Shown: positions 5,630-5,939 of the stretch, in pieces | Layout: each line of letters opens with the position of its first letter | How positions within the stretch are numbered: the first letter of the stretch is position 1 | Source: a virus | Lineage: Duplodnaviria; Heunggongvirae; Uroviricota; Caudoviricetes | DNA: 6,379 nt | Reading direction: 5' to 3' (one strand) | Virus record (IMG/VR): IMGVR_UViG_2541047166_000019 | The notes under the pieces: generated by a model | Told to the model about the DNA's origin: nothing | The model's database searches: none | The model's input: only the letters and a program-made list of their open reading frames with translations | Position numbers and translations under genes: made by a program

Positions 5630-5664
5630 TTGCTGCGGGTGCTTGAGGCTATCTGCCTCGGGCA

Positions 5665-5741
5665 TGAACACCAACGGCAGATAGATAAAAGCCCCACCCG
5701 ACTATAAATCGAAGTGAGGCCCCTATATGCTCGTCACATAT
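5665..5741 (-). ncRNA. sok: Candidate Sok-like antisense RNA (position by analogy with plasmid R1 hok/sok; ends approximate)
   Basis: On the minus strand a -35 TTGACC (5770..5765) sits just upstream of the mok SD, as in R1. The -10 at the equivalent distance is poor (AATCTA with a 19-nt spacer, or TATATG at 5741..5736 with a 23-nt spacer). A possible 3' hairpin plus CUUUU lies around 5665..5700. Presence and activity are uncertain. Confidence 0.3.
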
Positions 5742-5939
5742 AGATTGCCTCTTACGGACCGAAAGGTCAAGGAGAAGCAGGCTATGAAGCAGCAAAAGGC
5801 GATGTTAATCGCCCTGATCGTCATCTGTTTAATCGTCATAGTGACGGCACTGGTAACGAGGAAAGACCTCTGCGAGGTACGAATCCGAACCGGCCAGACG
5901 GAGGTCGCTGTCTTCACAGCTTACGAACCTGAGGAGTAA
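5727..5939 (+). CDS. mok: Mok-like reading frame (in-frame N-terminal extension of Hok), 70 codons
   Basis: ATG 5727 gives MLVTYRLPLTDRKVKEKQA followed by the Hok sequence. It has the same length and N-terminal pattern (ML.T.R.PLTDRKVKEK.AMKQ) as MokC of E. coli as I recall it. Confidence 0.55.
   Translation: MLVTYRLPLTDRKVKEKQAMKQQKAMLIALIVICLIVIVTALVTRKDLCEVRIRTGQTEVAVFTAYEPEE
5784..5939 (+). CDS. hok: Hok-family type I toxin (HokD/RelF-like), 51 aa
   Basis: MKQQKAMLIALIVICLIVIVTALVTRKDLCEVRIRTGQTEVAVFTAYEPEE is the Hok/Gef family signature and is near-identical to E. coli HokD as I recall it. SD GGAG (5771..5774) precedes ATG 5784. Confidence 0.9.
   Translation: MKQQKAMLIALIVICLIVIVTALVTRKDLCEVRIRTGQTEVAVFTAYEPEE

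Follow-up and report, generated by a model that had tools for sequence, protein, structure and literature searches.

The window, a 6,379-nt stretch of DNA from a tailed-phage record (IMG/VR IMGVR_UViG_2541047166_000019, Caudoviricetes), is 99.8% identical to the lambdoid prophages found at ompW (“PPompW”) in Shiga-toxin-producing E. coli, in which dicA/dicC-like repressors, replication genes and the Paa/AdfO adhesin are followed by ‘gef’, rem, ydfU, rusA and Q. Its hok region is 100% identical to some O157:H7 chromosomes, where RefSeq gives the label ‘hokD’ alone, and 558 E. coli genome records are at least 99% identical across the locus, with up to 10 matching places per genome. The phage (GenBank) and RefSeq records checked for this prophage locus contain no annotated sok. 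The gene directly upstream of hok/sok, at 4690–5448, encodes the Paa/AdfO adhesin (AcfC family; Pfam SBP_bac_11, 118 bits) and has its own terminator-like hairpin at 5455–5468. Between this terminator and the hok promoter sits a perfect 24-bp palindrome (CCGATATGGGAA/TTCCCATATCGG, 5568–5591, centred on GAATTC). With at most one mismatch, the palindrome occupies the equivalent position upstream of hok in many other prophage hok loci, some of which have a type I sok promoter as defined below; the Sp5-like locus lacks it, homology there starting just downstream, at AAAAACGGTTTGC. Possible roles are those of an operator, a module boundary or a hairpin.

Downstream of the palindrome, the window holds the parts of a hok/sok module: a Hok open reading frame, a structured leader, a predicted tac/fbi pair, and mok with its own Shine–Dalgarno (SD) sequence inside the Sok target (Table 1). 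Hok matches PF01848 (HOK_GEF) with 77.2 bits against a cut-off of 22, and the identical locus in RefSeq is hokD. The hok ATG follows the mok start by 57 nt, in phase 0, and the sokC, sokW and R1-type loci share this arrangement. A terminator at 6008–6025 marks the downstream end of the hok mRNA, whose full-length fold has a predicted energy of -163.5 kcal/mol (z = -6.9); in both the minimum-free-energy and the centroid prediction, mRNA nucleotides 1–12 pair with nucleotides 353–365, which is the tac/fbi interaction. The YUNR motif in the target loop has a role established from R1 hok/sok. On the strand opposite hok, a cis-antisense sok is recognizable from a promoter inside mok, a single-stranded 5′ tail complementary to the target loop, and a terminator hairpin.

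Table 1 Features of the hok/sok locus in the window, with the basis of each assignment
Feature	Position	Strand	Details	Basis
hok promoter	5603..5630	+	-35 TTGCTG 5603-5608, 16-nt spacer, -10 TAGGAT 5625-5630	read from sequence
Full-length hok mRNA	5637..6030	+	~394 nt, tac element to terminator	Rfam, terminator, fold
tac element	5637..5648	+	mRNA 5′ end, pairs with fbi	predicted fold
Predicted Sok antitoxin RNA	5680..5735	-	~56 nt, start G5735	homology with annotated SokC 5′ end
Sok target hairpin	5716..5751	+		Rfam consensus-structure alignment and sequence
mok SD	5716-5719	+	GAGG, inside Sok target hairpin	
mok AUG	5727-5729	+	inside Sok target hairpin	
mok reading frame	5727..5939	+	70 codons, in frame with hok	ORF list
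Target loop	5730-5736	+	CUCGUCA, contains YUNR-type CUCG	
sok promoter -10	5742..5747	-	CAATCT, 17 nt from -35	alignment to other sok -10 boxes
sok promoter -35	5765..5770	-	TTGACC, 5/6 matches to TTGACA	sequence
hok toxin gene	5784..5939	+	51 aa, HokD/RelF-like	Pfam, RefSeq
fbi element (fold-back inhibition)	5989..6001	+	CCUCAACGCACCC, pairs with 5637-5648	predicted fold

The leader matches the Rfam model RF01794 over 5637–5786 on the plus strand (103.9 bits; gathering score 59). This model, named ‘sok’, is oriented in the hok sense and covers the entire hok leader as far as the hok AUG. In K-12 it matches the strand opposite the annotated sokC and sokB; in locus L001 the match is at 402–554 on the minus strand. 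The plus-strand match was accordingly rejected as a sok gene: it marks the hok leader and, the model being hok-sense, carries no information about the sok promoter. A weak Rfam match to isrK at 5948–6029 (24.9 bits; gathering score 50; E = 0.028) coincides with the 3′ end of the hok mRNA, including fbi and the terminator, and most likely reflects a generic resemblance of a hairpin followed by a terminator.

The segment listed as the hok promoter is assigned to that role from homology and position: its -10 box ends 6 nt before the mRNA start, and it aligns with a conserved block (...AAAACGGTTTGC...GTTAAGTAGAATTGCTGCGGG) of related prophage hok loci, which suggests that it drives hok. The hok -10 box is polymorphic at position 5628 among window-type loci, reading TAGGAT here and TAGAAT in most relatives; this position differs in 20 of the IMG/VR loci that could be compared without gaps. 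The TAGGAT copy may represent a weaker allele of the hok promoter.

In the sok direction, the minus strand reads ...CTTCTCC TTGACC TTTCGGTCCGTAAGAGG CAATCT ATATGT GACGAGCATATAGGGGCC.... The initial annotation had taken TTGACC as the -35 hexamer, and this reading is borne out at 5770–5765. The hexamer lies just upstream (sok direction) of the hok SD and ATG, is identical to the K-12 sokC -35, and is unchanged in all window-type loci examined. Against a conventional sigma-70 definition (at least 4/6 matches to TTGACA, a 16–18-bp spacer and at least 4/6 matches to TATAAT), the -35 element with five matches and the 17-bp spacer both qualify, while CAATCT, with two matches, falls short as a -10 element. 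The same annotation had held that no acceptable -10 lay 16–18 nt from TTGACC. This stands in the sense that no hexamer at those spacings matches TATAAT at three or more positions, but the counting was at fault: the two candidates it named, AATCTA at 19 nt and TATATG at 23 nt, actually lie at 18 nt (5746–5741) and 22 nt (5742–5737), each off by one, and CAATCT at 17 nt was missed. CAATCT has C at -12 and keeps A(-11) (A5746) and T(-7) (T5742), the two bases that sigma-70 flips out. It is the only hexamer with A at its second and T at its sixth position among spacings of 15–22 nt. Because such a hexamer is expected by chance at about 1 in 16 positions, CAATCT alone is no evidence for a promoter; what gives it weight is its column-for-column alignment with the experimentally supported -10 boxes of related sok loci.

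In a MAFFT alignment of 11 representative loci, the sok -10 boxes fall into one column block directly after a conserved GTAAGAGG(C). This block contains CAATCT in the window, CACTCT in sokC, TAACCT in sokW, TAAGAT in sokB and TATCCT in the R1-type locus. The aligned hexamer has both A2 and T6 in all 11 loci and, in 10 of them, is the sole hexamer with this pair at spacings of 15–22 nt.

The closest promoter is that of hokC/mokC/sokC (gef) of K-12. Upstream of the annotated sokC (16952–17010), the sequence reads TTGACC-TTACGGTCAGTAAGAGG-CACTCT-ACATGT-G(+1), with +1 at 16952, and the window shares the -35 hexamer, the 17-bp spacer, a -10 of the form CANTCT, the 6-nt distance to the start and the G at +1. 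The likeness extends to the position and frame of mok, the Sok tail and terminator hairpin, and the leader matched by RF01794. The two loci differ in the third base of the -10 (C in sokC, A in the window), in the sequences of the Sok stem and target loop, in Hok (80% identity; locus L094) and in setting, which is the chromosome, with IS186 alongside, for the K-12 copy and a prophage, adjoining paa, for the window copy. Disruption by IS186 has been reported for hokC of K-12, so that the SokC promoter need not be under full selection in K-12.

Other relatives are closer in their toxin or setting. The hokD (relF) gene of the K-12 Qin prophage encodes an almost identical Hok, which we take to differ from the window Hok at one residue, and shows 98.9% DNA identity starting exactly at window position 5770; it is cut exactly at the sok -35 and, unlike the window locus, is without mok, sok and leader (loci L043, L047 and L088). 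The hokW/sokW locus of Sakai prophage 5, a Stx2 phage, is likewise prophage-borne, with about 86% locus identity and a nearly identical Hok. Its promoter, TTGCCT-17-TAACCT in Sp5-type sokW, has T rather than C at -12 and a -35 weaker than that of the window; the Sok body exceeds that of the window by about 20 nt, and the target loops of the two are unlike. K-12 sokB has TTGCCG-17-TAAGAT-7-G(+1). The hok/sok (parB) system of plasmid R1 has the same tac/fbi, mok and target hairpin and a promoter in the same alignment columns. It differs in its hexamers (TTGCGC-17-TATCCT), in a Hok only distantly similar to that of the window, and in being plasmid-borne and acting in post-segregational killing. 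The R1-type locus used here was obtained through the Hok protein, to which its own Hok is identical; R1-type hok/sok was not among the matches listed when plasmids were searched by blastn with the window locus. R1 Sok is 64 nt long with an 11-nt tail, and the T7 template for it starts with G-ACTAGACATAGGG... (PMC1635323), fitting a transcription start 6–7 nt after TATCCT; the Sok 5′ tail of the R1-type plasmid is slightly unlike the R1 sequence in the primer of that study.

Several of these aligned -10 boxes have experimental support. In the ‘pro-less’ sokW mutant (primers of Takada et al.), TAACCT was replaced by GAGCCG, and protection against HokW was lost; northern blots revealed sokW RNA (PMC8621323). 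For sokC, the 5′ ends sequenced by Dornenburg et al. coincide precisely with the established starts of both SokB and SokC (PMC2912661), p19 capture in vivo recovers abundant mokC/sokC double-stranded RNA (PMC7373196), and in genome-wide CRISPRi the knock-down of sokC was strongly deleterious, more so than that of sokB (bioRxiv 10.1101/2020.03.04.975888). The mapped 5′ end, the double-stranded RNA and the CRISPRi defect together indicate that TTGACC-17-CACTCT yields a functional antitoxin.

These data bear directly on whether the sok promoter in the window is dead or nearly so, with hok kept silent by the weak TAGGAT promoter, by absent 3′ processing or by an mRNA that cannot be translated. Such an account draws on the two matches of the -10 box and its C at -12, on a negative consensus scan, on the weaker hok -10 allele (TAGGAT against TAGAAT) and on reviews according to which several chromosomal hok loci are inactive. 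It is further favored by the T-12C change that abolished transcription from the R1 hok promoter, whose -10 is TATGAT and whose -35 is poor (PMC9841398), so that C at -12 can be severe, at least with a weak -35. The window, however, appears to offset C(-12) with a -35 matching at five of six positions at the optimal 17-bp spacing, as sokC does, and the same architecture in sokC gives a mapped RNA and a deleterious knock-down. Moreover, the elements that depend on Sok are intact in the window, namely the YUNR target loop, the complementary 5′ tail and the Sok terminator hairpin, and hok, mok and tac/fbi are intact across many variants. A dead promoter is thus quite unlikely. The earlier description of the promoter as degenerate holds for its -10, which matches the consensus poorly (2/6, with C for T at -12), and fails to capture a layout that is that of sokC. 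Nor would the promoter be unusual if Sok is made, as had been suggested: it differs from TATCCT of R1, and K-12 sokC shows that it is not out of the ordinary for the family. By analogy with the mapped RNA from a sokC-type promoter, the remaining suggestion, that Sok is not made and the locus is silenced in another way, seems unlikely.

The negative consensus scan deserves separate treatment. Applied to both strands of 5450–6100, it returned no promoters, with 0.3 expected in shuffled sequences. In none of the three comparison loci (R1-type, sokC and sokW) does the same strict scan detect the sok promoter, so its failure in the window is uninformative on function, and we rejected it as a functional test. 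The -10 threshold is failed likewise by sokW (3/6) and sokC (2/6); the R1-type -10 passes it (4/6), yet the R1-type promoter is missed by the scan owing to a -35 with three matches. When matches to both hexamers are summed, the window, sokC, sokW and the R1-type locus each reach 7/12.

Placement of the predicted Sok start at G5735 rests on the correspondence between CAATCT-ATATGT-G in the window and CACTCT-ACATGT-G(+1) in sokC. From there, the predicted RNA has a 12-nt 5′ tail, GACGAGCAUAUA, complementary to the target loop and the mok AUG, followed by a hairpin at about 5720–5691 and UUUU at 5690–5687; its fold (-23.4 kcal/mol, z = -3.9) resembles in shape those of SokC and SokB. Both ends are estimates that may shift by a few nucleotides. 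The 5′ tail and stem sequence specific to this copy is GACGAGCAUAUAGGGGCCUCACUUCG. A literature search for RNA of this copy in EHEC turned up nothing specific; the Pas sRNAs, considered as possible RNA evidence, proved to be merely neighbors of Sok matches and were set aside.

A -10 other than CAATCT, either TATATG, within the sigma-S-like TCTATATG and with little role for the -35, or AATCTA, would move the start to about 5730–5733. Both hexamers had been put forward in the initial annotation, and TATATG has 4/6 matches and TC before it. Nevertheless, TATATG is without T(-7) and AATCTA without T at its sixth position, and the 22-nt spacing of TATATG is incompatible with use of TTGACC. In addition, the sokC homologue of TATATG, TACATG, occupies -7 to -2 of the annotated, sequencing-matched 5′ end and hence is not the -10 there (PMC2912661), and with a start at about 5730 the RNA would lose most of the 5′ tail needed for pairing with the target loop. 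These alternatives are very improbable.

Specificity of the 5′ tail also bears on whether hok is held in check in trans by the Sok of other copies, which would make its own promoter dispensable. Copies are numerous, given the up to 10 matching places per E. coli genome and the 14 hok genes reported for O157 Sakai (PMC2887945). The tail and loop of the window (GACGAGCAUAUA and CUCGUCA), however, are unlike those of the sokW-type and sokC-type copies, and five chromosomal K-12 Sok RNAs gave no protection against R1 hok (PMC9841398). We therefore give protection in trans only a slight chance, and return to CAATCT as the -10 of a resident sok promoter.

A survey of about 290 loci from IMG/VR, GTDB genomes, phages and plasmids revealed three recurrent types of sok promoter. 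Type I combines TTGCCN or TTGCGC with a 17-bp spacer and TANNNT and is found in sokW, sokB, R1 and Photorhabdus loci. Type II has TTGACC, an 18-bp spacer and TAATCT, TAACCT or TACTCT. Type III, the sokC type, has TTGACC, a 17-bp spacer and CAATCT (window), CACTCT (sokC of E. coli, E. albertii and Shigella) or CAGTCT (Pseudocitrobacter). Relative to type II, the T at -12 is lost in type III, and the deletion brings the spacer back to 17 bp. TTGACC-17-CAATCT is present in about 49 of the 59 IMG/VR loci that have the Sok body of the window, and these are linked to at least seven different full-length Hok variants; the few differences within their promoter regions affect the spacer, position -6 or the loop and leave both hexamers unchanged. 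This conservation would fit a functional promoter, although it is not proof: it is confounded because these bases also serve as mok codons and as the target hairpin, and because many copies are recent, near-identical spreads. Confinement of C(-12) to TTGACC promoters was considered and rejected, as C(-12) also occurs in TTGCCT-16-CAACCT of locus L245, in which a TAG interrupts mok; this locus may be a decaying copy.

The reading frame of mok tracks promoter type, as judged from a comparison of window positions 5742–5770 with loci L014, L089, L100, L105, L002 and L001. Loci of types I and III have their mok start 57 nt upstream of hok and in phase, whereas in those of type II (TTGACC-18-TAATCT) it lies 58 or 56 nt upstream and out of frame; in the type II locus L014, mok is a 19-codon ORF whose terminal TGA overlaps the hok ATG. 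Insertion of A in the -35 and loss of T at -12 behave together as a compensated frameshift; the corresponding peptide reads LASYVPKGK in sokW and LPLTDRKVK in the window. On a more speculative reading, C(-12) is not neutral: a TTGACC-18-TAATCT ancestor would have lost the T at -12, restoring both the 17-bp spacer and the mok frame, so that promoter geometry and frame co-evolved, and the weaker -10 might lower the ratio of Sok to hok. We regard this scenario as unlikely; if true, the weaker -10 might make the prophage killer module easier to trigger, for example upon induction, as reported for sokW.

In some loci, the Sok terminator hairpin is that of the window, but the 5′ tail and the target loop are different and the promoter is of type I, TTGCCT-17-TAATCT (the hairpin-sharing loci are L254, L275, L278, L253, L272, L284, L244 and L245). 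This combination points to recombination breakpoints that may lie inside sok.

From the way the promoter is laid out, its homology to sok promoters with experimental support and the intact state of the other parts of the locus, we consider it probable that the window carries an ordinary hok/sok locus with a sokC-type sok promoter, TTGACC-17-CAATCT, from which a Sok RNA of about 56 nt, starting at G5735, blocks mok and hence hok. The sok promoter is probably not broken, since its -35, 17-bp spacer and -10 follow the layout of the active K-12 sokC, a layout that is already known. In the mechanism we propose, RNA polymerase would use TTGACC (5770–5765) and CAATCT (5747–5742) on the minus strand as a family variant (type III) in which a near-consensus -35 and optimal spacing accompany a -10 that retains only A(-11) and T(-7). 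Transcription would most likely start at G5735 and end after the hairpin and U-tract near 5680. The single-stranded 5′ tail of Sok would then pair with the loop and the mok start region of the processed hok mRNA, blocking translation of mok and hence of hok, and the duplex would be marked for RNase III. Transcription of this particular copy, the exact ends of its Sok and the strength of its promoter are extrapolated here from sokC, sokW and R1.

For the prophage, a sok gene, unannotated in GenBank and RefSeq, can be placed at about 5735–5680 on the strand opposite hok, and, the copy being built like known working copies, there is no need to invoke an unusual silencing mechanism. For the family, reading promoters by consensus alone fails for sok as a whole: where a coding frame and an RNA structure both constrain the promoter, a failed consensus scan is no sign of promoter decay.
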